A program made the translations under genes and the position numbers. Positions 1-23,446 of a stretch of DNA of 35,299 nucleotides are shown here, in pieces. This stretch comes from a virus (taxonomy: Duplodnaviria > Caudoviricetes): the IMG/VR virus record IMGVR_UViG_3300048575_000506, positions 1 to 35,299 of that record; one strand, written 5' to 3'. The notes beneath the pieces are model-generated. The model did no database searches and was not told where the DNA came from. It saw nothing but the letters and a program-made list of their open reading frames with translations. Within the stretch, counting starts at the first letter, position 1, and every line of letters starts with the position of its first letter.

Positions 1-561
1 ATGTGGCGCAAATACTTTCTCGTGTTGCTGTTCGCAGTCCTTTCGAGCAACCTCCATGCTGATTTCTATTACATCAGCCCGCCCATCTCATTGCACCACA
101 TGGCGGGCACGCCCGGCATCAGGTTCTACATCCGGTCGGATCAGGAAGCTCAGTACGGCGGCAATCACGGTTACAGCACGCTGCTGCACTTTGACCCGGC
201 TGTTTTTTCCAATCCGAGAATTTCGCCGCCACTCGATACCACCTGGGTGCATGCGGGGGGTGCGGAAGTGCACCCGGGTTACTTCCGCTTTTACGAACAG
301 CCCGACCCCTGCAAGCTGCTGGTGACCAATGGCACGGACGTTTCGACAGGGCCGAATGAGGCTTCGGCGGGGAATGAAGTGTTGGCGGTGATCGAACTGA
401 ATGTCAATCCCGCCGCCGTGGGTACCTCAACCCTGACCTTCAGCCGATTGAAGATTACCGACGAAGAAGGCAATCTGAACTCGGGCACGAATTTCTCGTT
501 TGGCCCGGTCACGGTGAAAGTCAATATCAACGCCGCGCAAGGCTGGTCCTTGTACGAATAA
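1..561 (+). CDS. Secreted protein with signal peptide and cohesin-like beta-sandwich; host gene or moron
   Basis: N-terminal signal peptide MWRKYFLVLLFAVLSSNLHA; cohesin-like segments LHFDPAVF and VLAVIELNV...GTSTLTF; aromatic C-terminus GWSLYE; convergent with the phage late genes (14-bp gap). Confidence 0.55.
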   Translation: MWRKYFLVLLFAVLSSNLHADFYYISPPISLHHMAGTPGIRFYIRSDQEAQYGGNHGYSTLLHFDPAVFSNPRISPPLDTTWVHAGGAEVHPGYFRFYEQPDPCKLLVTNGTDVSTGPNEASAGNEVLAVIELNVNPAAVGTSTLTFSRLKITDEEGNLNSGTNFSFGPVTVKVNINAAQGWSLYE

Positions 562-575
562 GCCCACGCGCGCGC

Positions 576-3500
576 TCAGAGGGTACCCTGCCGCAGGCGG
601 AAGAGCAGACGGCGGCGGGCATAGACAAGGCCCTGAGCATACGCTTTGGCGAGCAGTTCGACCTGCGCGTCGGGCTGTGCCCGCTGGATGCGCAGCAGTT
701 CCGCGCGCACGAGCTGGGCGCGTTCCTCGCCGACCAGTTCCAGATACCGATCATATTGCCGATCCGCCAGCCGATGCTTTTCTCCGCGCTCGTCGGTCAC
801 GACGCGCGTGGGGACGCTGGGCAGGGCTTGGGGATCGAGCGTGTTTTCCCAAACCTGCCGGCCGATGGTGGCCACGAAATCGCGTGGGGCGCTCTGGAGC
901 TTCAGGATATCCAGCAAATGATAAAGGTAGGGATTGGCCCCACCCGGCGTGCGGCGGATCGGCCGCCCCCACAGGTCGCGCTTGGGGGTCAAATCATCAG
1001 TCAGGTTGAGCTTGGCTTTGACCACATTGCGGAGTGTCTGTTCTTTGTCGCCGCTGCGCAGTTCGGGGACATAGGTTTGCTGAGTGTTGCCGACCGCCGA
1101 GACGGTGTTGGGAATGGCCAGCGCCGTGACGGCCTCCAGGTAAGAGCGCTGCCAGTGATCGAAGCGGTTTTCGGCCAGCGCTTCCAGCAGCGTCAGATTG
1201 CCTTTCAGAAATGACTGTTGCAGGAGCGCGCCGCCCAGTTCGGGCAGGTTGCCGGCCAGCGCGGCGCCCCACGAGAGCGGCGCGAATGATTTACCCGCCA
1301 GCCGCGCCTCTTTCAGGTCGTGCCAATGGCGGTTGGCCATGATCGAGAGCGCCAGCCCCATGAAGCCCAGCTTGTCATATTTGGCCAGCGTGTCCCCATC
1401 GCGGAACGCCGCGTCGCCCCCCTTGAGCCAGCGAATGAGGCCCGAGAGATTGAGCCGGTTGGGCAGCAGCCCCGCATACTGCGCCCCGCGCAGTTTTTCA
1501 TCCCTGTCGGGGTCGCCCATCGCGAGCCCCAGCGAGACGAGCAGGTGCGCGGCACTCAGCATCGTCATGCCGGTCACGAGTCGCCCCATGGAGAGCAGCG
1601 CGGCGCGCCGGTTGCCGCGCGCGGCGTGATAAAGCATTTGAGCGGCGGGCAGCGGCGGGACGAGATATTGCGCCCCTTCCCAAACGATATTGAGCGGCGT
1701 TTTGACGTACGGCGCCAGCGGCGTCATGAACAGCGCGTCCAGGTAGGCGCCGAGCCACGGAATCTCGCGCACGGCGGCTTTCAGGGCATAGACGGCGCTG
1801 GCGGCTTGGTTGTCCTGTTGATAGACGGAAGCGGTGGCGCGCTCCAGCGCCAGCCGCGCGCTGGCCGCGTCGGGGCTGAGCATGAATTTCTGGAGCGCGT
1901 CGCCGGAGAGCCCGCTCAGGCGCCCCAATTCATCCAGCGCCATGGCATGCGCGGCCGTCTTGAACACCTGATCCCCGGCGGCCAGCCCCCGGAACATGAT
2001 TTCGGGCGCCACGCCGAGCGTGGCCTCGACCGCCTTTTTCAGCCGGTCGGCCAAAGGGACGCGCCCCGTGGCGTCCACCAGGTTGTGCTCCAGATTGAAC
2101 GTTTGCAGCAAGGCACGCCACGGATGGAAACCGCGCGCAATGTCGGGCATGCTTGCGCCGTCCGGCAACACGCCAGAAGGCAGCATGCGGGCGGCCTGAC
2201 CCGCGCCTCGCTTGGCACCGGCGGCCCATGCACCGGCGCCCGAGAGCGGACCTTTCACTGTGCGCGGCTTGCCCGTGGCCATGGTCAGCGTGGCATCGGC
2301 CATCGAGGCCAGCGCTTGCGCCAGCGCACGCGGCGGGCCATTGACGGCATTGCCCAGCACGTTCGCGACTTGCGAAAGCGGCGTCAGCAGGTTGCCTTGG
2401 ATAAATGCCGTCAGGTGATTGCCGAGTCTGGTTGGCGAGAGCACTTGAATCTTGAGCAACAGCTTGCGGCTGGCCAGCTCCGCCGCCAGCAGGGCGTTAG
2501 CGTGTTGCATCGCGTGGAGATCATCAAAGTTTTTGAGGTACTCAGCTTCCGCCACACGCAGTGCCGCGCGCGCTTTGAAATCGGCATCAATTAAATCCGT
2601 CAGCACCTTGCGGGCGGGCGGGGTCATGTAACGCCCCTTGCCCCTCCAATTCGCTTCGAGCATGGCCAGCAGGCCCGCCGGGGTGCTGGTCTTGATTTCG
2701 GCGAACTGGCGTAAAAGCTGCGCCACCGGCGTGCCGATGTTGGCCAGCGTTTCCACCACGTCCGCCACCGACTGGCCGCGCGCGTGGCGGCGGCTCAGCA
2801 GTTCGATGCCCGCCTTGACGGCGGCATTCTCGCGGCTCAGCACATCCTGCAACTGCCGGCGCTTGTGCTGGATCATTTGTTCCAGGTCGGCGTCGCTCAT
2901 TTGTGCCAGTACGGCATTGAGCTGCTGGTAACGTTGCGGGGCGTAATAATTTTCAGGGCTGAAGGCGATGGCCGTCTGGTCGGCGGCGAATTTCGGATCG
3001 GCGGCCATGCGCTCGGCGAAGCCGCGCGGCTGGTAATCCGCGCCGGGCTGCTGCTCGCGCGCCTCGACCCGCGCTTGCGCCAGCGGGTCCAGGTCGGCGT
3101 ACGCCATCACGCGCGCGCCGCGCTGGGTTTTTACTTCTCCGGCGGTTGGTGCTTGCGCTTCGCTTGAGCCTTGCGAGCGTTGCGCCGGGCGAACATGGCC
3201 TCCACGGCCTGATCTTCGATGGCCGAGAAATTCGAGTAATCTTTTTGTGGGGTTGTCGGGGGTTCCGCCGAGGTATTGGGGCGGTTGTCCGAAGGGGACG
3301 TCGTTGGAGTAGTGGGCATAGCTGTCAAAACCTCCTAACCTGACGAATTCATGATAAACGTTCAGGGGTTTGTTGCCTACAACATTAAAGATATAGACCG
3401 GATCGACGAAGCGGCCGGAAGCGACAAAGCGGTCGAACGCGCGCCGCACGGCCTTGTCCGCGTCCAGATGATTGAGCACCAGGTGCACTTCATAGTTGGC

Positions 3501-6500
3501 CGCCTTCAGATTGGTCAGGCGCGTCATGATCGATTTGGGATTGTCGCCCACCAGCGGCCAGACGAGATTGACGCCCTGTTCGACGGCCTGACCCGCGACG
3601 GCCGCCGCGACTTGGCTGGAGGCCTCATGCACGGCAAACGTGCCCGCCCCGCCCCGGAAATTGGCGAATTTACGTTTGGCGATATCGGAGTCGATCAGCA
3701 AGGCGCCGTAATGCTCCGAAAGCGGATCGGCGAGTGTGGACTTGCCGGCCGCCGAGGGACCAATCACGAGAAAAGCGGTTTTTTCAAATTTGAGGCCGCT
3801 GTGGGGCACGCCCCCGCCGACGCCGGGCTTGATCGCTTCTTCGTTTTTTTCCTGTTTGAGCCGCAGCAGGTCATGCACCGCGCGCCGGCGCTCCTCGTGC
3901 GTGGCGGCCTGTTCGCCCAGCTCGTTGGCGAGGCGATTCTGTTTTTCGCGTTCGGCGTAAGCCTGTTCCTTTTCCCGCTCCGTTAAAGAATCCGGGAGCG
4001 GATCGCGTTTCCCGTACTGGAACTTGGGGAACAGATCGGGCTGGGACGCGGCAGCGGGGGATGCCTGCGGCGCTCGCGGCGCCGGGCGTGGCAACTTGGC
4101 CGAGGGCTCCGGTCCGCTGAAGAAATCGCCCATGCCGGGGATACGCTCAGCCGGGCCGAGTTTGGCATTCACGCTGGGGGTGCCGACCTGATCCATGGTC
4201 GGCCGGATAAAATCGGCTTGCGCGGGTGCGCTGGCGGAAGGCGGCGCCAGCGCGGCTTGCCGATCCGTCATGATCGCGCCTAAATCATCGGCGCCGTTTA
4301 CAGCTTGTCGCGCATTTGCTGATAATGGCGGGCGAGAATCTTGTCCGGGTGATTTTCCGGCAGGCTGTCCCACCACTGATCGAACACTTCGGACGCCTGC
4401 TGCATGTCGGAGCGTAGTGATTCGATTTCGGAGGGTGTCAATTGACGCGAAGTGCCGGTAGAGGGCGGCAAGTTGTCCGTGGGTGAGGTGTCGGATGGAT
4501 TGGGCGAGGTCATAGACGGATAATACTCCTGCGAGGTTGCCAAGGCCAAATTTTTTGTCAACGCGGGCCAGCAGGTCGGCCGAGGGCGTCAGGTGCTTGC
4601 CCGACCCGGCCCACGGCGCAAAGGTGGTCGCCAGCGTCGTGGCGTCCACCACCTTGCCGCCGTGCGATTCAAGATATTCGCGTAGCGCCTGCAAGGTGGC
4701 GCCGGTGGTCGCGACATCATCGACCAAAATATATTCCTGCCCCGGCGTGACGGGACCGTCGAATTCCGGTTGGCGCAGCAGCCGCTCCAGTGGTCCGGCG
4801 TCGGTGTGCCGTGTTTCATTGGTTTGCACAATGTTAGTGACGATGGGCAGGCCGCTGAAGCGACTGGTGTATTTGGCCAGCGCGAGCGGCAGTTTGTTTT
4901 TGCCTGTCGCCTCCTGGGCGTGAACCGGCACCAGCATGGCGCGGGGATGCTGGCGGCCCAGTTGATAAGCGCGGTCGCGCTTGATCAGCCGTTGCACGAC
5001 CTGCGCCGCTGCTTGCATGTTCCCCTGTTTGGCCGCCGCATAGTCCGGGTGTGCTTTCATCGTCTGGATCAGCGTGTGAATCGTGGCGTCGGGAAAATCT
5101 TCCGGCCACGGTTCCACGGGGTAGGAGCCGCGCGGCTTTTGGAATTTGAGTTCGCCGTGGCCCGCCCAGGCGCGCAGCACATCGAGCGGTTGCGCCGCGC
5201 CCAGCAGCGAGTCTTCCCCGGCCTGCGCCTTGAAGACGAAATCGCGCAGCGCGTCGCGCAACTGGTTGGGCTTGTGCAGCACGTCGGCCAGCTTGGCGCC
5301 GATCAGCGTTTCTTCTTCCGTGGCGGGCGAAACCCAGTCTTGCGTGGCCTTCAGGTCGGCGTAAGTCCTGGCCCCCTTTTCGGCCATCGAGCGGGCCAGC
5401 CGGTAGAGCGGGCCGGCGAGGTCATAGGCGGGGGGGAGCTTGCCGCCGGCAACGGCCAGCTTGAGCCCCAAGAGGGACGGCAAGGCTTTCGTGATGCTGC
5501 CGCGCAGGCCCCGGTTTTCCTCCAGAAACCGCAACGCGGCGCGCTGCTGCGGTCCCTCGAAGGCTTTGGCCAAAAGCGCCTGTTCCAGGAGACTCTTGCC
5601 CACGTCGGTCAGGCGCCCCTGCGGGTCAACGAACACTGAGCGGTTCTGATGCGTGAAGGCGCGCGCGCGATTCATGCTGCCGACGAATTCGCGTGTCACG
5701 CGCGGGTCGCCGAGCGCCTCGCGCAGCGTCGTGTCGTCGTCCAACTCCAGCGCCGCGATACTGGCCAGCGGCACACGGCCGGCGGTCGAAATCGCCTGGC
5801 TGGTAAGGTCAAGCGCCTTGGTGCCGGTGTCATTGGCCTGGTCGGCAAACTCGCGCCAGCGCGCGCGGGGCAGGCCCGTCAGTTCGCGCACCAGCACCGG
5901 CGCGCGCATCCGCTCAATCCGCGCGCGGTCCAGCCCATACTCATCGGCGGAGCGCAGCAAATGCTGCTGGTAGGCTTGCAGCTTGGCGGGCTGATTAAAA
6001 GCGCGTTGCAACGTCATCGCGCGCCCATTGCCCGCCAGCACGTAACCTTCGGGCGTCACCACCGGCGGGCCGTTTTCCGGCCCCAGGTCGCGCGTAATCA
6101 CCAGCCGGGGATCGAGCCGCGCGGCGTTGCGCAGCACCTTTTCCTGTTCGGCCGGATCGGTTTCATAATCGCGCGGCTGCAGCTCGCGCGTGTAATCGGC
6201 GCGCGGCCGGAAGGTTTGCGCGTCATTGGAGGGGATCAGCTCGGCCGCTTCGCGCACGCGGTAGCGGATCGGGTGGTCTTCCTCAGTGTTGGGATGCCGA
6301 TAAACCGAGGCGTTGCCAAAGTCGGGGGCAGCGGCGCCCGTCACCGGGGCTACCGGTGCGGCCGGGCCGGGCGCCGGCTCCCCGCGCAATTGGCCCTGCC
6401 GATATTCGATCAGCAGCTCAGCCGCGCGCTGGCGCGCCGCTTCCAGACCGGACTCTTTGACCCACGCTTCGGCGTTGTAGGCGCGCGCCAGCCGCGACTT

Positions 6501-8459
6501 GAGCGTCTGCACCAGATTAACAAAAATGCGGGCGACGTGGCGAAAGATCGACGGCTCGCCCTGCGCCAGCCGGTCCCAAAAACGGGGGTCGCGAATCTGC
6601 TGGCCGAGAAAATCGCCCGAGAATTCGGAGAGCGCGTTGTCCAGCGACATTTGCGGCTCATCGTGGAAGCGCGCATAATCGAGGCGCAATTGGGCCGGGT
6701 CGTTGGCGTGCGTCAGCAGCGCCGCGCGCACGGCCTTGACGCGCTCGTGATCGGCGCCCAGTTCGCTCTGGATCGCTTCCCACAGTTCATGACCGACCAC
6801 AAAACTGGCCTGATTCTCCCCGCGCGCATTGATGAAGAGTTGCCCGGGCTGCGCGGGATCATAGGCGCCGTTGAAATAGGGGGCGCCTGCGGTTTGCTCG
6901 ACAAACAGCGCATTCTTGCCGAAAGTATTGGCGACTAAGGCCGCGTATTCGAGTTCGGGGCCGGCGGGTCCGCTGTAAGGTCGGAGGCTGCGGATGCCTC
7001 GTTCATAGTCGGCGGCGCGAGCGTCGCCCCGTTTTCCCGCAACAGATTGTAGACTGGATTTTTGCAGTTGGGCAATGGCTCGCCATGCTGGTCCGTCCGT
7101 TTCGGAACGTTCAGAATGACGCGGCCCAGGAACAGGCGTGGCATGGGTGGGTGCTCCTTGTGTCGGCCCTGATGCTGCCACATTTGACCCTGTTTGTTCA
7201 ACTGGAACTTGAACGGGTTCTTGCGGGCGCAGGGGGGCGGCCGGGACCGGCTGCTGAATCACGGGGGCTGGCGCCGTGGCCGGTTGCGCGGGCGGCGCCA
7301 TGGGTTGAGTGGTTGCCGCTGCCGGTTGTGCGGGTAGCGCGGGCGGTGCGGCTTTGGTCTGCGGTACCTGCGGCGCCGTTTGCGGCAGCGCCTTTTGAGG
7401 CGGCGCCGTTGTCGGCGTGAGGTGTTGCGCGAAGGCGCCCCCCGCGCCGAAGAGACCGCCCGAGAAGGCGCCAAGCACCCCCGCCTCAAGCTGTTCCTGA
7501 CGGCTGGCGCCCTGCGCGCGCGGGTCAAGTTGCTGCGCCGCAATGCCCGGCGTCGTTTGCTCAAAGGCTTCCGTCGCGCCTTCAATCGCGCCCGCCGTTC
7601 CCGCCCGCACGGCCGCCTTTTTGAACAGCCCTTTGGCCGGTTCCTTCACCACGCGGCCCGCCATCGCTTCAAACGGCAGCACGCCCCCCACCAGCGCGTT
7701 GACCACGCCCGAGCCCAGCGCCGAGGTGGCCGCGAACTGGTGCGCCTGTGCCGGTTGGTAGCCCAGGCGCAGGAATTCCTGATAGAGGTCGGGGTAGTTG
7801 CTCCCCATTTCGGAGAGGCCATAGACGGCGGGGCCGACGAGCGGCGCGGCGGGACCGCTGGCCAGCGTGGCGCCCAGCCCCACACCGGTTTGCATCATCG
7901 ACTCCGGGCCGCGCGCGGCCAGCCAGCGCGGGTCGACAAAGCGCCCGAGGTCTTGGCGCGCGGCCAGGTCGGGCGCGAGCGGATACTTTTCGCGCGCCTG
8001 CGCCTGCCCCGCCATGATCAGCGCCGCGCCGCGCTCGCTGAGCGTGGGCGCCGGTGCTTGAATCGGCACCGGCTGCCCGGCCAGTTGCACCCCCGGCTCA
8101 AGCCCCACGGGCTGTTGTTGATTCATGAACAGCCGGGGCCGCCCCGCGCCGAGCAGGGCCGAGTGCGCGGGCGGGCTGAAAATCCCGGCGGCAGCGGTGC
8201 GGGTTGCTGTCTCCGGCACCATCATGCCCGCGCCCACCGGCGTCGTGCCCGCCTGCGCCGCGCCGCGTTCAAACGAACGCCAGCCCTGGCGCAGCGTGTC
8301 GGCGAAATAGCCCAGCGGATTACCCGTCAGCGTGGGCGCGGGCGGAGTATCGAGGGGGGCTACCTGATAGCCGCCGATTTCGGCAGGCAAAGTCACCTGC
8401 GCCCCCGGCTGGGTTGGGGCATCCAGCGGCGCCACCTCATAACCATTGATTGTTGTCAT
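576..8459 (-). CDS. Giant polyvalent internal-virion/ejected protein: degenerate zincin-like, DdrB-like ParB, phosphoribosyltransferase, zeta-toxin-like P-loop kinase, helical C-terminal region
   Basis: 2627 aa. FNGAYDP...GHELWE (~6400-6950); ELQPRDY...GPPVV..GYVLAGNGR (~5570-6280); YILVDDVATTGATL (~4400-5120); GPSAAGKST...IDSD...SGRFVDP (~3290-3790); last gene of the ejection cluster. Confidence 0.85.
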   Translation of the reverse strand: MTTINGYEVAPLDAPTQPGAQVTLPAEIGGYQVAPLDTPPAPTLTGNPLGYFADTLRQGWRSFERGAAQAGTTPVGAGMMVPETATRTAAAGIFSPPAHSALLGAGRPRLFMNQQQPVGLEPGVQLAGQPVPIQAPAPTLSERGAALIMAGQAQAREKYPLAPDLAARQDLGRFVDPRWLAARGPESMMQTGVGLGATLASGPAAPLVGPAVYGLSEMGSNYPDLYQEFLRLGYQPAQAHQFAATSALGSGVVNALVGGVLPFEAMAGRVVKEPAKGLFKKAAVRAGTAGAIEGATEAFEQTTPGIAAQQLDPRAQGASRQEQLEAGVLGAFSGGLFGAGGAFAQHLTPTTAPPQKALPQTAPQVPQTKAAPPALPAQPAAATTQPMAPPAQPATAPAPVIQQPVPAAPLRPQEPVQVPVEQTGSNVAASGPTQGAPTHATPVPGPRHSERSETDGPAWRAIAQLQKSSLQSVAGKRGDARAADYERGIRSLRPYSGPAGPELEYAALVANTFGKNALFVEQTAGAPYFNGAYDPAQPGQLFINARGENQASFVVGHELWEAIQSELGADHERVKAVRAALLTHANDPAQLRLDYARFHDEPQMSLDNALSEFSGDFLGQQIRDPRFWDRLAQGEPSIFRHVARIFVNLVQTLKSRLARAYNAEAWVKESGLEAARQRAAELLIEYRQGQLRGEPAPGPAAPVAPVTGAAAPDFGNASVYRHPNTEEDHPIRYRVREAAELIPSNDAQTFRPRADYTRELQPRDYETDPAEQEKVLRNAARLDPRLVITRDLGPENGPPVVTPEGYVLAGNGRAMTLQRAFNQPAKLQAYQQHLLRSADEYGLDRARIERMRAPVLVRELTGLPRARWREFADQANDTGTKALDLTSQAISTAGRVPLASIAALELDDDTTLREALGDPRVTREFVGSMNRARAFTHQNRSVFVDPQGRLTDVGKSLLEQALLAKAFEGPQQRAALRFLEENRGLRGSITKALPSLLGLKLAVAGGKLPPAYDLAGPLYRLARSMAEKGARTYADLKATQDWVSPATEEETLIGAKLADVLHKPNQLRDALRDFVFKAQAGEDSLLGAAQPLDVLRAWAGHGELKFQKPRGSYPVEPWPEDFPDATIHTLIQTMKAHPDYAAAKQGNMQAAAQVVQRLIKRDRAYQLGRQHPRAMLVPVHAQEATGKNKLPLALAKYTSRFSGLPIVTNIVQTNETRHTDAGPLERLLRQPEFDGPVTPGQEYILVDDVATTGATLQALREYLESHGGKVVDATTLATTFAPWAGSGKHLTPSADLLARVDKKFGLGNLAGVLSVYDLAQSIRHLTHGQLAALYRHFASIDTLRNRITTLRHAAGVRSVRSVVGQPAGKSPGQDSRPPLSANARQAVNGADDLGAIMTDRQAALAPPSASAPAQADFIRPTMDQVGTPSVNAKLGPAERIPGMGDFFSGPEPSAKLPRPAPRAPQASPAAASQPDLFPKFQYGKRDPLPDSLTEREKEQAYAEREKQNRLANELGEQAATHEERRRAVHDLLRLKQEKNEEAIKPGVGGGVPHSGLKFEKTAFLVIGPSAAGKSTLADPLSEHYGALLIDSDIAKRKFANFRGGAGTFAVHEASSQVAAAVAGQAVEQGVNLVWPLVGDNPKSIMTRLTNLKAANYEVHLVLNHLDADKAVRRAFDRFVASGRFVDPVYIFNVVGNKPLNVYHEFVRLGGFDSYAHYSNDVPFGQPPQYLGGTPDNPTKRLLEFLGHRRSGRGGHVRPAQRSQGSSEAQAPTAGEVKTQRGARVMAYADLDPLAQARVEAREQQPGADYQPRGFAERMAADPKFAADQTAIAFSPENYYAPQRYQQLNAVLAQMSDADLEQMIQHKRRQLQDVLSRENAAVKAGIELLSRRHARGQSVADVVETLANIGTPVAQLLRQFAEIKTSTPAGLLAMLEANWRGKGRYMTPPARKVLTDLIDADFKARAALRVAEAEYLKNFDDLHAMQHANALLAAELASRKLLLKIQVLSPTRLGNHLTAFIQGNLLTPLSQVANVLGNAVNGPPRALAQALASMADATLTMATGKPRTVKGPLSGAGAWAAGAKRGAGQAARMLPSGVLPDGASMPDIARGFHPWRALLQTFNLEHNLVDATGRVPLADRLKKAVEATLGVAPEIMFRGLAAGDQVFKTAAHAMALDELGRLSGLSGDALQKFMLSPDAASARLALERATASVYQQDNQAASAVYALKAAVREIPWLGAYLDALFMTPLAPYVKTPLNIVWEGAQYLVPPLPAAQMLYHAARGNRRAALLSMGRLVTGMTMLSAAHLLVSLGLAMGDPDRDEKLRGAQYAGLLPNRLNLSGLIRWLKGGDAAFRDGDTLAKYDKLGFMGLALSIMANRHWHDLKEARLAGKSFAPLSWGAALAGNLPELGGALLQQSFLKGNLTLLEALAENRFDHWQRSYLEAVTALAIPNTVSAVGNTQQTYVPELRSGDKEQTLRNVVKAKLNLTDDLTPKRDLWGRPIRRTPGGANPYLYHLLDILKLQSAPRDFVATIGRQVWENTLDPQALPSVPTRVVTDERGEKHRLADRQYDRYLELVGEERAQLVRAELLRIQRAQPDAQVELLAKAYAQGLVYARRRLLFRLRQGTL
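3131..3319 (-). CDS. Overprinted +1-frame small protein (62 aa) overlapping the end of the zeta-like kinase domain
   Basis: AGGAGG at 3336-3331, 11 nt before ATG 3319; product MPTTPTTS...DYSNFSAIEDQAVEAMFARRNARK; host frame uses rare AT-rich codons here (AGG TTA GGA). Confidence 0.55.
   Translation of the reverse strand: MPTTPTTSPSDNRPNTSAEPPTTPQKDYSNFSAIEDQAVEAMFARRNARKAQAKRKHQPPEK
4298..4513 (-). CDS. Overprinted +1-frame small protein (71 aa) overlapping the end of the PRTase domain
   Basis: AGGAG at 4530-4526, 12 nt before ATG 4513; amphipathic helix LTPSEIESLRSDMQQASEVFDQWWDSL; local GC dip. Confidence 0.6.
   Translation of the reverse strand: MTSPNPSDTSPTDNLPPSTGTSRQLTPSEIESLRSDMQQASEVFDQWWDSLPENHPDKILARHYQQMRDKL
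6935..7144 (-). CDS. Overprinted +1-frame small protein (69 aa) just upstream of the zincin-like domain
   Basis: AAGGAG at 7159-7154, 9 nt before ATG 7144; product MPRLFLGRVILNVPKRTDQHGEPLPNCKNPVYNLLRENG...; local GC dip. Confidence 0.5.
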   Translation of the reverse strand: MPRLFLGRVILNVPKRTDQHGEPLPNCKNPVYNLLRENGATLAPPTMNEASAASDLTADPPAPNSNTRP

Positions 8460-8477: not shown

Positions 8478-9824
8478 TCACGATTGGGGAAGCGGTTGGC
8501 CATCGAAACCGACCGGTTGACCATTGACGATCCAGCCGACGTGCTGGCCGTTTTTGAGTGCCTTGGCGGTTGCGCCGGCCGGTGGCGCGGCGGCGCCCGT
8601 GGGAGGCGCGGCGCCGCCAGTGGGGGGCGTCGGCGTCGGCGCCGCTTGGGCCGGGGGCGGCTGCGCGGCCTGCATTTGGCTGCCGATCTGTTGCAGCGTT
8701 TGCGCCTGCGCCGTGAGCGCTTGCGTTTTGCGCCGCACGTCGGCCAGCTCATCCGCGCCGGTCTGCGGCGGCGTGACGCCCGGCACCCACGTCTCGGAAA
8801 TATCACCCCCCGTTTGCGCCGCGCCGTAAGCCTGACGCTGCAATTGCATGTAATCGGCGGGGCGATTGCGCGCCATCCAGCTAAGTTGTTCATTGAATTT
8901 CTGTAGCCCCTGAAATTCCGGTTCGCGGGCATAATTGGCGAACCACAGCCGTCCGAGCCGCTCCAGCGCGCCGCCGACCGCCGCCGTGGAGGGGGGCTTA
9001 CTGGCCGGCGCTTTGTCCACTTTGGCCGGTTTGACCGGCGGCGTCGCAACCTGCACGCGCCGGCCGGTGGCGGGGTCCACATATTCACCGTAACCCTTGA
9101 GCCACTGCGCCTTGTCGGCTTTAGCCGGGGCGTCAAAGTGCGTCAGCTCGCGCAGGGTCGTGGGCTCGACGAAATAGCGGCGGCCGCCGACGGAGAATTC
9201 AATCGGCGCGCTGGCCTTGCGCCGCGCCGCTTCGGCGCTGGCGGCCACGCGCGCGGCGCTCATGCGCTCGTTAAACTGCTGCGCCGCCGAGGTCAGTTGC
9301 AACTGTGCCAGTGCGGTGGCGTCTTCGGGCGAAAGCCCTTGTGGCACGTTCAAAGCCGCCGGGCCAGTCCCCGTCATTGCCGCTGTCCCCGCCATTCCCG
9401 GCGCGCCAGCCTGGCCCGGCGTACCGGCCGCGCCGGGCGTCCCAGGCATACCGGGCATACCGGCCGCGCCGGACATACCAGCCTGCAAATTCGCCAGACC
9501 GCTGTGAAAAAGTCTGGCGCGCGTCAGTTGCCCCGCCTGGGCGGCCATGCCTTGCGCCAGCGGATTTTGCGGGGCTAGATTCGCGCCGAACTGCGCCAGT
9601 TGATTCATGACATTGGTGCCACGGTCGGAGGTGGCAAAGTTTTTGAAACTGGACCAGACCCCGCCGCCCGCAGCGGTCGGCGCGGGCGCGGGGGCCGCCA
9701 TGGGTCTTGCGGCCGGTGCGGCCGGTGGGGCCTGCGCCGCCAGCGTAGCTTGATAGGGGGAAAATAAAGCGCTCAGATCGCTTTGCGGTGGGGAAAAAAG
9801 CATCGTCGCCAAACCTTTCAGCAT
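8478..9824 (-). CDS. Putative DNA-ejection/internal virion protein
   Basis: 448 aa, Ala/Gly/Gln/Pro-rich; lies between the pilot-like gene and the giant protein. Confidence 0.6.
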   Translation of the reverse strand: MLKGLATMLFSPPQSDLSALFSPYQATLAAQAPPAAPAARPMAAPAPAPTAAGGGVWSSFKNFATSDRGTNVMNQLAQFGANLAPQNPLAQGMAAQAGQLTRARLFHSGLANLQAGMSGAAGMPGMPGTPGAAGTPGQAGAPGMAGTAAMTGTGPAALNVPQGLSPEDATALAQLQLTSAAQQFNERMSAARVAASAEAARRKASAPIEFSVGGRRYFVEPTTLRELTHFDAPAKADKAQWLKGYGEYVDPATGRRVQVATPPVKPAKVDKAPASKPPSTAAVGGALERLGRLWFANYAREPEFQGLQKFNEQLSWMARNRPADYMQLQRQAYGAAQTGGDISETWVPGVTPPQTGADELADVRRKTQALTAQAQTLQQIGSQMQAAQPPPAQAAPTPTPPTGGAAPPTGAAAPPAGATAKALKNGQHVGWIVNGQPVGFDGQPLPQS

Positions 9825-9827
9825 CCA

Positions 9828-10799
9828 TTACAAAGTGCCGCCCGCCAGTGCCAGCCCGCCTCCCGCAACCGCGCCGATCACGGTGCCGATTCCGGGGGCG
9901 ACCATGCTGCCCGCCAGCGCGCCGCTGGCCGCGCCCGACAGCGCGCCGCCCAGCATCGACAGGCCGCTGTTGCCCTTGCGCGTCCCCGCGCCCGGCACCG
10001 TCGCGCCCCCTTGCACATTGCCCAGCAGGTTGCCGGCATAAGCGAACAGTTCCAGATCCCACAGCGCGTCCTTGATCGCGAACTCGGCGTCATCGTCGAA
10101 ATATTCCTTCATCGCGACGATGCGCATCCGGGCGACTTCGGTTTCCATCGCCGCCGCCGCGCGCTCAAGTTCCACTTTGGCGAAGATCGATTTCAGCATT
10201 TCGCTCGTGGCGGCCGTGATCGCGACCAACCGGTCGCGCCACGCCTGCCGCTGCATTTCGGCGCTGAATTTCGCGACTTCATGCAGGTGGTCGCTTTCCA
10301 GCGCCGCCAGTGCGAACAGGTAGGCCGAGCCGCTGACGGCATTGGCGTCAAAGTAGCCCGCCGACAGGCGCGCCATACTGCGCAGGAGTTCGCGGCGCTG
10401 CTCCTGCTCAAAGGCCGCCACCAGCGGCGCAATCGTCTCCGGCCCGGCCAGTTCATTCGCGCGCGCGATGGCCGCCGTCTGCGCCGTTTGGTAATCGCTC
10501 GCGGCATCCAGCGCGCCGACCTTGCCGTGCAGCGCGTCCAGTTTGGCCTGCACGGCGGCCATTTCGCTGGTGGGATCAAAAGGCGCGAGATCGGCATACG
10601 GGGAGTGACCATAAGCGGCGTGCATGGCCTCCCGCATGGTCACATCGCCTTCCTCGACTTCGCCCAGCCAGCCCTTGTGCCGGTCTTGCAGGTAGGAAGG
10701 CCACGAGACTTTGCCCGACGAACCACCGCCGCCGCCCGAACCGCCGCCCCCTTTGTGCGCCACCCGTCCCAGTTGCTCCAGTACGCAGAGGCCCGCCAT
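9828..10799 (-). CDS. Putative DNA-ejection (pilot) protein
   Basis: GGAGG SD before ATG 10799; N-terminal KGGGGSGGGG and C-terminal glycine zipper GGALSGAASGALAG...GAVAGGG typical of podovirus ejection proteins. Confidence 0.7.
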   Translation of the reverse strand: MAGLCVLEQLGRVAHKGGGGSGGGGGSSGKVSWPSYLQDRHKGWLGEVEEGDVTMREAMHAAYGHSPYADLAPFDPTSEMAAVQAKLDALHGKVGALDAASDYQTAQTAAIARANELAGPETIAPLVAAFEQEQRRELLRSMARLSAGYFDANAVSGSAYLFALAALESDHLHEVAKFSAEMQRQAWRDRLVAITAATSEMLKSIFAKVELERAAAAMETEVARMRIVAMKEYFDDDAEFAIKDALWDLELFAYAGNLLGNVQGGATVPGAGTRKGNSGLSMLGGALSGAASGALAGSMVAPGIGTVIGAVAGGGLALAGGTL

Positions 10800-10801
10800 G
10801 G

Positions 10802-11248
10802 TTAAACCTCCAGCGTCAAAAAGCGGTACTGCGCCGCGCCGCCCAGGCGCTGCCACTGTTCCACCACGCGCTCACTGTCGCTGAAGGCCACGATGCGGTG
10901 GCAACCCTGCGCCGCCGCAAACTTGCGCAGCGCGGCCAGCCCAGCGGCCCAAATCTCGTCCGCCATGAAGCGCACTCCGGCCAGGGCGTAAACCAGCAGG
11001 TTGCGCACGCGCGAGCATTCGTCTTCGGAAATCGTGGTCGCCATCACGCCGACATAGACGGCGCCCGGCGTCCCCTCGCGCTCCGCCAGCGCCACCCACA
11101 GTTGCATGCCGCCGTTGAGCAATTCGGCCAGCATGTTGTTCATCCGTGCCGGGTCGCCGTAAGTGAAGGGCGGCAGGGCGCGTTCGAGCTGCGCGCGCAG
11201 CTCCGGCCAGTGTTTGCTGATCAGTTGCGGTCGCATGCGAATAATCAT
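10802..11248 (-). CDS. GNAT-fold/acetyltransferase-like virion-associated protein
   Basis: Likely start MIIRMRP at 11248 after AGGA; LLVYALAG...LRKFAAAQGCHRI pattern; conserved position after the nozzle gene in podoviruses. Confidence 0.6.
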   Translation of the reverse strand: MIIRMRPQLISKHWPELRAQLERALPPFTYGDPARMNNMLAELLNGGMQLWVALAEREGTPGAVYVGVMATTISEDECSRVRNLLVYALAGVRFMADEIWAAGLAALRKFAAAQGCHRIVAFSDSERVVEQWQRLGGAAQYRFLTLEV

Positions 11249-19779: not shown

Positions 19780-20067
19780 TCAGGGTTTCAGTTTCAAAAA
19801 GTGCGCCGCCAGCAGCGCGACCAGCGAAGTGGCGCTCGTGAAAAACGTCGCCACCGAGGCGCTGACCACGATCCAGTAAAACTTTTCCATTCGTTCGATC
19901 CGCTGTTTAACCAGTTCCACTTCGGTCTTGAGCCCCAGCTTGCCGTTGCCGTAAATCTGCTCCGCCAGCGCCTTGAGCAGCGGCTCCAGTTCACAAGCCT
20001 CGGCGGGGCGGACCACCGGCGGGCTACTACCGAGCGGGGGGACGCTGTCAAGCGCCGAGGGGCTCAC
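19780..20067 (-). CDS. Membrane protein (coiled coil plus C-terminal TM), lysis accessory or holin-like
   Basis: Likely GTG start overlapping the upstream TGA; GNGKLGL motif; C-terminal hydrophobic helix. Confidence 0.55.
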   Translation of the reverse strand: MSPSALDSVPPLGSSPPVVRPAEACELEPLLKALAEQIYGNGKLGLKTEVELVKQRIERMEKFYWIVVSASVATFFTSATSLVALLAAHFLKLKP

Positions 20068-21740
20068 AGCCCCACCCGCGCAATCGTCAGATAGGTGACA
20101 TAGGGCGCCGAGCCATTGATCGCCAGCGCCGTGCCCGAGTTCTGCCACGCGCGCACATCGACCGTCTGCCCCGCCGCCAGCCGCAAGACGCCGCCGGCCG
20201 CCGCCGAGGTGGCGTTGGAGCTGTTCGGCGCATAAACGCCGTTCATCACGATCGTGCCCGCAACCGCAATCCCGCAGGCGCGCGAGCCGCTCGCATTGGG
20301 TTCGAAATAGCAGCAGGCGGCAACGTAGTAAGTGCCCGCCATCGGCACCGTGAAGACACCCGTCGCGGGATTAAACGCCTGCGCCGTGTCCACTGTCTCC
20401 ACATTGAACGGCACGACGGTCGTGGCGGCGCTGGCCAGCGCCGCCGTATTGCCCGAGCGATAAGCCTGAAGATAAACCTGTTGCAACGCGGAGCGATTCA
20501 CAAACTCCCCCGCATTATACAGCGCGCGGATTTCCCCCGCGCTCAGCGCCCGCGAGAATTGCAGCCATTCATCAAGCTGCGCCGCCAAACGCTGACTCCC
20601 GTTTGCATCGCACGCCAAACGGTAGGCACTGTTGCCCGCCGCGTTGCCCAGCGCGCTGTACGTCGCGCTCCAAAAAGGCACCGCGTCGCAGTACCACACC
20701 ATCTGTTTGGTGGCGCGTTCCAGCGTGAAACTCCACAGGTGCCATTTGCCGTCGAACCACGATACCGGCGGATACTGCGTGGACGGTCCGACCACATTGC
20801 TGCCGTCATACACGACCAGGTATTGCCCGCCGTCATTGGTCAGCGCCCAGCGAAACCCTTTGCTCGTCGCCGTGCTGTAATTGGTGGCGAGATAACCGGC
20901 ATCGGCGGCGCCGGCGCGCAGCCACACGCACAGCGTGAAGCTGCCGTTACCGTCGCCCCCCAGTTCATAACGCGCGCTGTCAAAACTGAGATAATCATCC
21001 ACGCCGTCAAAGGCGAGGCAATTGCCGAGACTCACGCGGCCTGCGCTGTCCACGACCGCCGCCGCCGCCGCCGGGGCACCGGCCAGCGTGGGCGTCAGCC
21101 CATCGACCCAGTTCTGTACGCCCAGCGGCGTATTGGCATCAAAATGCACCTGCACTTGCAGCCCATTGTCGCTCACCCCGCCCCCATTATTAATCAGCGC
21201 CCCGCCGCTGAAGGTATTGAGCCCCGTCCAGGTGAGAGCCGTATTGAGCGGCAGCGAGAAAATGCCGGTCGCGCCATTATAAGCCAGCGGCGGCGCCGCG
21301 CTGAGGCTGGCCCGCGCGCGCGCCGCCGTGAAATACTGATTCGTGCCTTCAGGCACTTGCGAGGTCGTGCCGCCCCAACCGATGCGCTGGAGCGCCGTGT
21401 CATACGTCAGCGGCGCGCCGACCCGGTCGCTGAGCGGCAACCACTGGCGCGTGCCGTCCAGGTATTGACCATAACCGCCGCCCGGCGGCAGCAGTTGCAG
21501 CGTTTGCCAGCCGCCCGTCCCCTTGTCATCGCTGGCCGTAAAGACCTGCCCCGGCGTGGCCGAACCGCCCAGCCGCGTCTGGCCCTCGATCACGCAATCG
21601 CCGTGGATCGTCAGCTTGTCATCGATTTCCCGCTGCCCCCCAGGCGCACTAAAGGGGCTAAAGATAAGAAATACGCTCGCGACGCACCCACACGCCATCG
21701 CGCCGCGTCTCAAAAATGAAATCATGCGTTGCTCCATCAA
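20064..21740 (-). CDS. Tail fibre/receptor-binding protein with LamG (ConA-like) and C-terminal C1q-like domains
   Basis: LAFDGVDDY, FTLCVW, DGKWHL, LDEWLQFSRALSAGEI (LamG); FNPATGVFTVPMAGTYYV (C1q); start codon uncertain. Confidence 0.75.
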   Translation of the reverse strand: MMEQRMISFLRRGAMACGCVASVFLIFSPFSAPGGQREIDDKLTIHGDCVIEGQTRLGGSATPGQVFTASDDKGTGGWQTLQLLPPGGGYGQYLDGTRQWLPLSDRVGAPLTYDTALQRIGWGGTTSQVPEGTNQYFTAARARASLSAAPPLAYNGATGIFSLPLNTALTWTGLNTFSGGALINNGGGVSDNGLQVQVHFDANTPLGVQNWVDGLTPTLAGAPAAAAAVVDSAGRVSLGNCLAFDGVDDYLSFDSARYELGGDGNGSFTLCVWLRAGAADAGYLATNYSTATSKGFRWALTNDGGQYLVVYDGSNVVGPSTQYPPVSWFDGKWHLWSFTLERATKQMVWYCDAVPFWSATYSALGNAAGNSAYRLACDANGSQRLAAQLDEWLQFSRALSAGEIRALYNAGEFVNRSALQQVYLQAYRSGNTAALASAATTVVPFNVETVDTAQAFNPATGVFTVPMAGTYYVAACCYFEPNASGSRACGIAVAGTIVMNGVYAPNSSNATSAAAGGVLRLAAGQTVDVRAWQNSGTALAINGSAPYVTYLTIARVGL

Positions 21741-22038
21741 TTCTGAATCGCCACAGCGCCGTGCCGGCCACGCCGAGCACGATTTGCTCCAGCACGCCGC
21801 TCTCGGCGTCCCCTTTTCTCAACACATCGTGCTCATTCGTCGGCGGGCGCAGGACCGTTACCCGGCCGTCGGTATGCAGCGCGCACACCTCAATCCCGCT
21901 CGGCGTGCCGTCCTCGTTTTCATATTCCAGCGCGTTGCCGTATTCATCCGTTACCGGCACTTCAAACGGGCCGCGCGAGCCGTCGTAAATCGTGATTGTC
22001 GCATTCGGTACACCGGCCATCTCAGGCCACTTTGACAA
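21658..22038 (-). CDS. Hypothetical tail-associated protein
   Basis: 126 aa between the two fibre-like genes. Confidence 0.55.
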   Translation of the reverse strand: MSKWPEMAGVPNATITIYDGSRGPFEVPVTDEYGNALEYENEDGTPSGIEVCALHTDGRVTVLRPPTNEHDVLRKGDAESGVLEQIVLGVAGTALWRFRIDGATHDFIFETRRDGVWVRRERISYL

Positions 22039-23446
22039 TCGAAAGCGTCACGTTGCAATCGGGGTTGCCCGCCGGGGCCACAATCGCCAGCGCTTCGCCC
22101 GCATTCTGGTGTGCCCGAATCGTCAGCTTGTCGCCCGCCTCGGCCGCGACCAGACCGGTCACCTCGTGATGCGTGCCGATGGTGCTGTTCGCTAGCACCG
22201 TGCGATGCGTCCATTCGGTTGCATTGACATAAATGCCGAGGTCCCGTTGACCGTCCGCCTGCGCCGCAAAAGCCACCGTCGCGCTTACCAGGTACGCCCC
22301 GCCGCCCCCCGCCGGGACGGTGAATTCGCCCGTGGCGGCATTGAAACAGTTCCCCACATCGACCCGTTTGGTCGGAAACAGCACCGTCACCGTCGCGTCA
22401 GCGGGTACCAGTTGCGAACCGGCTTGGTAGGCGAAGACGCGCGGATTGCCGCCCAGCGCCGCGATGCCCCCCACCGTCAGGCCCCCCGTGAAATTCCCGC
22501 TCGCGCCGCTGACCGCCCCGGCGGCGCCCACACTGGCCGCCGTCAACATCCCCGCGAGCGTCAGATCGCGCCCATATTGGCCACCGACCGCCGACCAAGC
22601 GCCTCCCGCCGCGCCCGCCACCACGTGCGGCGAGTTCGCCGCGCCGCCGTGACTGTCCCAGGCATACAGCGTGAAGCGCGTCGGGGCGCCGCTTTGCCAG
22701 GCCACCAGCAATTGCCCCTCGTCATGGCCCGCCAGCGTCGCCAGCTCGGGCGCCGGATCGGCCAGGTTGACGACCGGCACGCGCCGCATGATGCCCGCGC
22801 CGTTCGTCAGTAGCGCCAGCGCGGCCGCCAGCGCGGCCAGTTCGCCCAGCACGGCATCGAGTTCCTGCTTGCGCACCGCATCGGTGGCCTCAACCGGCGT
22901 CTGACTCACCCGGCACTGCGATAAAAAGGCGCGCCAGCGCCCACTCTCAAAGCCCAGGTAATAGGCGTCGTCATTCGAGGGGAACAGGTTCCCTTCCAGA
23001 TTCAGCCCGCCGCACTGGATATAGGGGCCGGAGCCAATCCACATCCCGCGCAGCTTTGCCGGGCAGCGGTACGGTTCAAAGCCGCTCCCCGTAAAGGTCG
23101 GATCATAGAGATACTGCGCATAGAGCCGCGCATGCAGCGCGTCCTCGGCCTCCTGCCACACGACCAGCACCCCGGCGTCGTCGCCGTTGTATTTCGCCAG
23201 CTCTTGGGCGGGGTGATAAATGTCCGCCACCTGTAAATACAGTCGCCGCGTCGCCATGGGGTCCACGTCCATCAGCCGCAACACGTCGGTCGGCGCCACC
23301 GGCGCGCCGTCCACGCGCACCGGCAATTCACTGCGCAATCCGCGCAGGGGTGCCCCGTCACTCGGATAAAAACCATCGGGGTCGATTTCCAATAAAATGC
23401 CCGGCCCCAGCCAGACAGCCTTCTTTGCCATTATGCCGCCATCCAT
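22022..23446 (-). CDS. Tail fibre-like protein with C-terminal C1q-like domain
   Basis: FNAATGEFTVPAGGGGAYLV C1q motif; YYLGFESGRWR fibre-type motif. Confidence 0.65.
   Translation of the reverse strand: MDGGIMAKKAVWLGPGILLEIDPDGFYPSDGAPLRGLRSELPVRVDGAPVAPTDVLRLMDVDPMATRRLYLQVADIYHPAQELAKYNGDDAGVLVVWQEAEDALHARLYAQYLYDPTFTGSGFEPYRCPAKLRGMWIGSGPYIQCGGLNLEGNLFPSNDDAYYLGFESGRWRAFLSQCRVSQTPVEATDAVRKQELDAVLGELAALAAALALLTNGAGIMRRVPVVNLADPAPELATLAGHDEGQLLVAWQSGAPTRFTLYAWDSHGGAANSPHVVAGAAGGAWSAVGGQYGRDLTLAGMLTAASVGAAGAVSGASGNFTGGLTVGGIAALGGNPRVFAYQAGSQLVPADATVTVLFPTKRVDVGNCFNAATGEFTVPAGGGGAYLVSATVAFAAQADGQRDLGIYVNATEWTHRTVLANSTIGTHHEVTGLVAAEAGDKLTIRAHQNAGEALAIVAPAGNPDCNVTLSIVKVA

Follow-up and report, generated by a model that had tools for sequence, protein, structure and literature searches.

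The question raised by this locus is why a single giant phage gene should carry, within its own coding sequence, three short open reading frames (ORFs) preceded by SD motifs, and whether these encode partners of the enzyme domains of the giant protein. The window, that is, the whole stretch of 35,299 nt analysed here, is a provirus record (36% complete) whose terminase, SU10-type portal and capsid genes lie on the minus strand, upstream of a 2627-codon gene. Pfam matches on the product (ddrB-ParB at aa 726-860, PRTase at aa 1192-1277 and zeta toxin at aa 1560-1690) bring PF18763, PF00156 and PF06414 together in one 2627-aa provirus ORF, which fits the polyvalent proteins described in the accessible text of Iyer et al. 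2017 (PMC5512222). The gene closes the run of virion genes, a position which suggests that the protein would be packaged in the virion. The host gene and its domains map as follows:

576..8459, minus strand: ORF of the 2627-aa polyvalent protein, final gene in the virion gene run of the provirus record
6390..6947, minus strand: zincin-like domain, about aa 505-690, with a HELWE motif at aa 557
5880..6284, minus strand: ddrB-like ParB domain, aa 726-860 (PF18763, E 9e-21)
4401..5111, minus strand: KfrC/ComF-like PRTase domain, aa 1117-1353 (PF00156), with its DD motif intact (VDDVATTGAT at aa 1246)
3255..3782, minus strand: zeta-toxin-like P-loop kinase, about aa 1560-1735 (PF06414, E 9e-10), with Walker A and IDxD present

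The zincin-like region matches no Pfam or PHROG family, its label having been given in an earlier note on this DNA from the motif alone, and the domain is possibly inactive because the window has HELWE where two homologues have HELxH. Elsewhere in the window, two G/A/Q-rich genes directly before the giant gene (8478-10856, minus strand) give no informative Pfam match and seem to resemble ejection proteins. Terminase and portal are separated by two C1q/BclA-like genes (20064-23446, minus strand), of which one has a LamG domain; this is an unusual place for fibre-like genes. A 186-aa ORF at positions 1-561 (plus strand, opposite to the phage genes), with a signal-peptide-like start and no Pfam match, may belong to host DNA bordering the prophage.

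The earlier note had reported three SD-led ORFs in the +1 frame of the giant gene, and all of them were reproduced with the same ATGs, SDs and lengths:

6935..7144, minus strand: N1, nested +1 ORF of 69 aa, from the ATG at 7144 to the stop at 6935
7154..7159, minus strand: SD of N1, AAGGAG, 9 nt upstream of the ATG
4298..4513, minus strand: N2, nested +1 gene of 71 aa, from the ATG at 4513 to 4298
4526..4530, minus strand: SD of N2, AGGAG, 12 nt upstream of the ATG
3131..3319, minus strand: N3, nested +1 gene of 62 aa, from the ATG at 3319 to 3131
3330..3336, minus strand: SD of N3, AGGAGGT, 10 nt upstream of the ATG (AGGAGG, 11 nt)

As the same note had stated, N2 overlaps the tail of the PRTase and N3 that of the zeta-like kinase, while N1 precedes the zincin-like domain. 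These are the only +1 ORFs of the gene that start at an ATG, span at least 50 aa and follow an SD core of at least 5 nt, and the +2 frame holds none. With these thresholds of length and SD, which were fixed after the finding was known, shuffling of synonymous codons gave a mean of 0.13 such ORFs and never three (0 of 2000), a shuffle within local stretches of 60 codons gave a mean of 0.21 and reached three in 5 of 2000, and about 1% of shuffled sequences did so once the SD core was relaxed to 4 nt. The 17 other genes (20,259 nt), taken as a control, contain two alternative-frame ORFs with a 5-nt SD, both of the AAGGA type. The codon switch of the host frame and the local drop in GC reported before are also present, since the three nested ORFs sit in the lowest 65-codon GC3 windows of the gene (host codons 413-477, 0.32; 1339-1403, 0.42; 1692-1756, 0.52), the next-lowest window being at 0.65 and the remainder at 0.78. 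A codon-likelihood ranking returns the same three windows as the worst of the giant gene, and 11 of its 14 CGA and 11 of its 19 GGA codons fall within these 205 codons. A fourth GC3 dip (codons 1955-2019) was rejected as a further nested gene, no SD-led ORF being found there, and the ddrB-ParB domain has none either. None of the three peptides matches PHROGs, and a soil DNA sequencing run with a 0.05 share yielded short scattered contigs and nothing more.

These counts bear on the simplest explanation, in which the ORFs would be untranslated by-products of host-protein motifs (K-E-G giving the SD, D-G or Y-A giving the ATG) and of linker composition. Such an origin would account for the ease with which the +1 frame stays open when the host residues are fixed (89% of recodings over N1, 87% over N3), as well as for the S/T/P-rich leaders of the peptides, which mirror conserved host motifs. 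However, SD, ATG and open frame occur together in 0.98% (N1), 0.08% (N2) and 4.4% (N3) of the same recodings, and recoding nulls in which the host protein is preserved yield counts far below those observed. Moreover, public annotation lists orphan and overlapping copies of such ORFs as genes. For the set as a whole we regard a by-product origin as very improbable; it is unlikely for N2 and N3, while N1 needs a separate judgement, given below.

The N2 peptide has an S/T/P-rich leader followed by an LTPSEIESLR motif and, in an AlphaFold model, two predicted helices (residues 27-50 and 56-70). The PRTase domain itself was modelled with a pLDDT of 90.9 and its best structural match is ComF (7p0h), so that with its type I fold and DD motif it belongs with the invasive-element (KfrC/ComF-like) PRTases. 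A +1 ORF with the same LTxSExExLR motif is found in three AT-rich phage loci at 36-39% identity. Among the 63 distinct viral loci that represent the best 80 of 105 PRTase relatives from an alignment scan, an N2-type +1 ORF with the motif is present in 62, and a peptide profile, in whose training alignment a few of the 63 loci also figure, matches the +1 frame at E <0.01 in 61 loci and at 0.016 in one. The sole exception (L022) still keeps an open, divergent +1 ORF at the same place. Of these 62 ORFs, 52 are wholly nested and 10 overlap the host stop codon. All nine chosen GenBank/PLSDB loci (two of three phage matches and seven of 149 plasmid matches), kfrC included, carry the +1 ORF.

In an alignment of 51 viral PRTase sequences below 90% identity (L009 omitted), the 46 aligned columns of N2 contain no +1 stop in 2346 cells, against 347 in 7433 cells upstream, the +2 frame having 145; by the cruder measure of a window at fixed offset, the +1 frame is open in 35 of 51 sequences, with 5.8 expected. 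Start and open frame together occur in 49 of 51 loci (11.1 expected), and an SD of at least 4 nt in 24 (1.7 expected) or of at least 5 nt in 16 (0.7 expected), which leaves over half of the loci (27 of 51) without a clear SD. Over the motif, whose L, S, E and L residues are 94-98% conserved in +1, the nested frame is better conserved than the host frame (0.72 vs 0.54), which argues against a by-product. Sorted by host codon position in 15 independent close pairs, substitutions amount to 117/78/493 in the enzyme core and to 60/31/32 over the N2 helix, where +1 periodicity takes over, indicating that selection switches to the +1 frame over N2. The leader, which largely mirrors the conserved host motif LTxxEA, is probably passive.

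The N2 start region is weakly structured (rank 2 of 55 +1 ATGs), and promoter-like matches precede it:

4520..4561, minus strand: weak, unproven promoter-like matches before N2 (TTGACA at 4561-4556; TTGGCC-18-TATTAT at 4549-4520)

In 14 of the 51 PRTase loci a sigma70-like site occupies one common register; it has several close kin among its carriers and is absent at that position in the window; in the whole zone such sites are found in 18 of 51 loci (2.4 expected), control zones giving 1 and 2. A protein search with N2 alone found no homologue, and Pfam recognised no family in more than two of 45 N2 homologues.

Several loci of this group are of interest in themselves. In three Moraxella phage fusions of a head protein and a PRTase (L004:1954-3796, L032, L045) the host ORF ends inside the partner gene, of which GenBank annotates just the last 39 codons (AKI27356.1), and one nested ORF of 134 aa (L029:3545-3949) holds three tandem copies of an LTPSEIESL-type motif. 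An apparent in-frame fusion of PRTase and partner (L191) contains two frameshifts, one of them within a C run, and was discarded as the probable outcome of indel errors.

In the case of the kinase, the domain has 2390 relatives, and its profile matches zeta toxin (1gvn, E 8e-11) and PezT (8e-4), in agreement with a zeta-type P-loop kinase with Walker A and IDxD. A scan gave at least 39 viral loci, seven P-loop-only matches were dropped, and the counts refer to 28 non-redundant kinase sequences, the window among them. A +1 ORF of at least 45 aa starts 15-45 codons past GRFVD in 25 of the 28 (9.6 expected), with a 4-nt SD core in 20 (3.5 expected) and a 5-nt core in 17 (1.7 expected), while ten control offsets gave 0-2 of 12-24. 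Substitutions by codon position in four pairs (35/22/86 in the kinase vs 19/6/11) show the same shift of periodicity as N2. The N3-type peptides share a layout (an S/T/P leader and an acidic, probably helical part) and little sequence, their C-terminal half being less conserved than the host frame (0.28 vs 0.37). Promoter-like sites behind the kinase show no clear enrichment (6 of 28, 2.7 expected). A single-protein locus scan with the kinase found nothing, and tblastn with it found no phage record and one plasmid, in which the zeta-like kinase is followed by a separate 130-aa gene instead of an overlapping small one (L016:4608-5000). The toxicity of this kinase clade is assumed by analogy with zeta, as treated in the accessible text of PMC5512222.

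N2 and N3 each start within the last 20-40 codons of their domain, and the relatives differ in whether the enzyme gene ends partway through the partner gene (as in L102 and L122 for the kinase) or reads on through it.

N1 is different. It has the strongest codon anomaly of the three, which sets in some 25 codons ahead of the SD. An alternative ATG, at 7183, lacks an SD, and the start-site structure of N1 is ordinary (rank 24 of 55). No homologue of N1 was found, the N1 and zincin hunts giving matches of 20-31% identity only; Atlas matches for N1 were weak (recognition 2001), a single-protein locus scan with the zincin-like domain found nothing, and six distant zincin homologues have no conserved +1 gene upstream. 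An SD-led +1 ORF before a zincin in L137 was rejected as a relative, because it shares 'LFLG' in another register, probably by chance. N1 is quite probably a third nested gene, yet the lack of a homologue and the ordinary start site would also suit a by-product, which for N1 alone we judge somewhat unlikely. In any case, N1 is outside the domain-linked pattern of N2 and N3.

The earlier note had proposed that each effector cassette carries its own nested partner, and had made this depend on the conservation of SD, ATG and open +1 frame behind homologous domains. The proposed linkage is supported for the PRTase with N2 and the kinase with N3, as start, open frame and often SD recur at the same register; it is not supported for the zincin-like domain and finds no counterpart in ddrB-ParB. 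The close linkage of two genes kept together, as in toxin-antitoxin pairs, is seen likewise for N2 (62 of 63) and N3 (25 of 28) and not for N1.

The premise that the enzymes are toxic, also part of the earlier note, finds published support for a plasmid homologue. The window PRTase is homologous to plasmid KfrC (31-37% identity; 149 plasmid records), and kfrC genes of IncU, IncP and related plasmids (L007-L011, L013, L014), from collections without RK2, contain an unannotated SD-led +1 gene of 52-56 aa. In RA3 (NC_010919) it occupies 4311-4472 (L014:1312-1473) over host codons 207-260, with 53 codons and the SD GGAGGT. Neither this peptide nor N1-N3 has an exact entry in a collection of 15 billion proteins, which contains one overlapping and two orphan copies of the N2-type protein. 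According to the accessible text of Mitura et al. 2021 (PMC8124265), an excess of KfrC slows growth, an effect that a DDT-to-AAA mutant no longer has, and attempts to clone kfrC1-249 under tacp failed. This truncation in RA3 retains 42 of the 53 nested codons, so the cloning failure fits, and does not prove, an antitoxin role of the nested gene; it is open to other explanations, because the C-terminal dimerisation domain is missing from KfrC(1-249) as well, and cloning of the fragment did succeed in the form of two-hybrid fusions (PMC8124265). R751 kfrC lacks both the PRTase and the nested ORF, a double loss that is uninformative because one deletion removes both.

These plasmid data bear on the idea that the nested products are cognate and non-inhibitory, acting as folding chaperones, activators or delivery adaptors of their domains. 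The linkage of N2 and N3 to their domains would be the same, and an excess of intact kfrC, which contains the nested gene, still inhibits growth according to the accessible text of PMC8124265. Nevertheless, the truncation that cuts the nested gene seemed in the same text more, not less, harmful, and a chaperone or activator should not outlast the decay of the enzyme frame, as the orphan copies described next do; we hold this reading to be improbable.

When GTDB genomes were scanned for the exact motif, 48 loci with 50 matches (two counted twice) were obtained, 24 with a PRTase core upstream and 26 without. For 19 distinct matches at least 900 bp of upstream sequence are available and contain no PRTase core in six frames. 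When these orphans are compared with 23 PRTase-linked loci (five short-flank loci and L191 being set aside), an enzyme-frame stop occurs within 60 codons in 14 of 19 orphans against 0 of 23, and the host motif is kept in 10 of 19 against 21 of 23, while the N2-type start and open frame are intact in 19 of 19 orphans, a set biased by the exact-motif selection. Among the genes around the orphans, of which 49 of 59 ORFs were scanned, some resemble phage genes and others have housekeeping or defence roles. Of the 17 N2-peptide matches in viral contigs, 13 lie behind a PRTase; the other four (two distinct) come after an LPD3 domain, and their records contain no PRTase. The RA3 nested peptide matches 115 plasmid records, and the four small plasmids inspected (weak matches, 4 of 4) carry a free-standing N2-like ORF with no PRTase trace in six frames.

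Some details of these orphans deserve mention. Among the small plasmids (L210-L213), the ORF of L210 follows a DUF4160/DUF2442 gene pair and that of L212 is coupled to a resolvase gene; of the homologues on small mobilisable plasmids, one that is coupled to a resolvase gene is annotated (WP_167699514.1). MDI9333147.1 is likewise an orphan copy. One Desulfamplus assembly holds four orphan copies (L169, L170, L175, L176), one Desulfobulbaceae assembly two orphans and one PRTase-linked copy (L167, L172, L173), and in L206 the orphan gene adjoins a DarT and Macro-domain (DarTG-like) pair.

Such orphans raise the possibility that the small proteins are real and independent of the enzyme, serving for example in exclusion, anti-defence or regulation against a target in the host or plasmid, with the overlap alone keeping the two genes linked. 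The free-standing homologues on small mobilisable plasmids without a PRTase, the copies behind LPD3 domains, the four copies in a single Desulfamplus assembly and the tandem motifs of L029 would all be consistent with such a role. However, all examined PRTases of the clade have the ORF at the same register, be it in phage polyproteins, MuF-type fusions or plasmid solos, a different peptide occupies the equivalent place behind the kinase, and orphan antidotes would also be expected if the products were inhibitors. The orphans fit an antidote kept as immunity and an independent function equally well, the former because arc1 likewise stays intact behind a dead avrRxo1, as reported in the accessible text of PMC4938570. 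Independence is in our view unlikely, though to be reckoned with, and it is mainly the existence of N2 homologues without the enzyme that holds our confidence in inhibition at a moderate level.

With that moderate confidence, we favour the reading that N2 and N3 are putative cognate inhibitors, inherited from enzyme-plus-partner cassettes after the loss of a stop codon. The process would start with a two-gene cassette, the enzyme followed by an overlapping partner, whose first stop codon is lost, so that the former partner gene becomes the 'linker' to the next domain and would travel with its own domain whenever polyvalent proteins are shuffled. Expression would proceed from the ribosome-binding site of the partner on the shared mRNA and, in some lineages, from an internal promoter. 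The products, as antitoxin or immunity proteins, would keep the enzyme domains quiet in the producing cell, protecting the lysogen or the assembling cell, and the enzyme would act after delivery or once the partner decays. More tentatively, and here we would speak of a possibility rather than a probability, polyvalent proteins in general may have been built by toxin-antitoxin read-through, with one +1 antidote per toxic domain, the enzyme delivered without its antidote by the virion or the conjugation machine, and orphans collected by chromosomes and small plasmids as immunity. On this wider view, kfrC of IncP and IncU plasmids would be an unrecognised gene-within-gene toxin-antitoxin module in mobile-element conflicts.

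The preferred inhibitor reading suggests how a cell may survive making giant phage proteins full of toxic enzymes, and how such proteins can be carried and shuffled, as well as a reason for the odd codon use in polyvalent-protein linkers. It also offers candidate natural inhibitors for finding the activity of the invasive-element PRTase. Since RA3 kfrC contains an unannotated 53-codon gene, any deletion or truncation of kfrC would affect a second protein too.

Among known systems, the embedded spanins Rz/Rz1 of lambda, a membrane-fusion pair for lysis with the small gene nested out of frame, also have a complete small gene inside a phage gene and products that cooperate, but they form a single module with no enzyme and no read-through linker. 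Epsilon/zeta (PezAT) kinases phosphorylate UDP-sugar cell-wall precursors, and their epsilon/PezA antitoxin is encoded upstream of zeta/PezT; the window departs from this arrangement, as N3 lies downstream of the kinase and overlaps it, and gives no significant Pfam match. AvrRxo1:Arc1 likewise consists of a zeta-like kinase and then a short partner gene, but Arc1 (98 aa) is encoded downstream by a gene of its own and the word 'overlap' is absent from the accessible text (PMC4938570). The polyvalent proteins of Iyer et al. 2017 similarly join ddrB-ParB, invasive-element PRTase and zeta-like kinase in one giant protein (PMC5512222), and the accessible part of that paper calls the role of the PRTase enigmatic and contains neither 'overlap' nor a nested partner. 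KfrC of IncU RA3 and IncP-1 has a homologous PRTase and the same nested +1 ORF, within a two-domain plasmid protein instead of the multi-domain phage protein of the window; the accessible text of Mitura et al. 2021 (PMC8124265) has no 'reading frame', and its lone 'overlap' concerns oriT.

The literature searched, which consisted mostly of papers free of subscription and included the accessible text of Iyer 2017 and Mitura 2021, has no description of genes nested within polyvalent proteins or kfrC, and within that literature the domain-specific link and the kfrC case are the new part. The closest described system is the in-frame antitoxin of Rpn (YhgA-like), where, in the accessible part of the preprint (Zhong et al., bioRxiv 10.1101/2023.05.02.539157), a small product from inside a toxic-enzyme gene blocks the long one. 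Both have a small gene inside an enzyme gene. In Rpn this gene has an internal start and promoter; behind the PRTases and kinases start and SD are enriched, with a promoter-like site at one register in part of the PRTase loci. On the other hand, RpnS is read in the same frame as RpnL and corresponds to its C-terminal domain, whereas N1-N3 are all in +1 and N2 and N3 are unrelated in sequence to their host, and the window partners, as putative inhibitors, are specific to single domains of a multi-domain phage protein.
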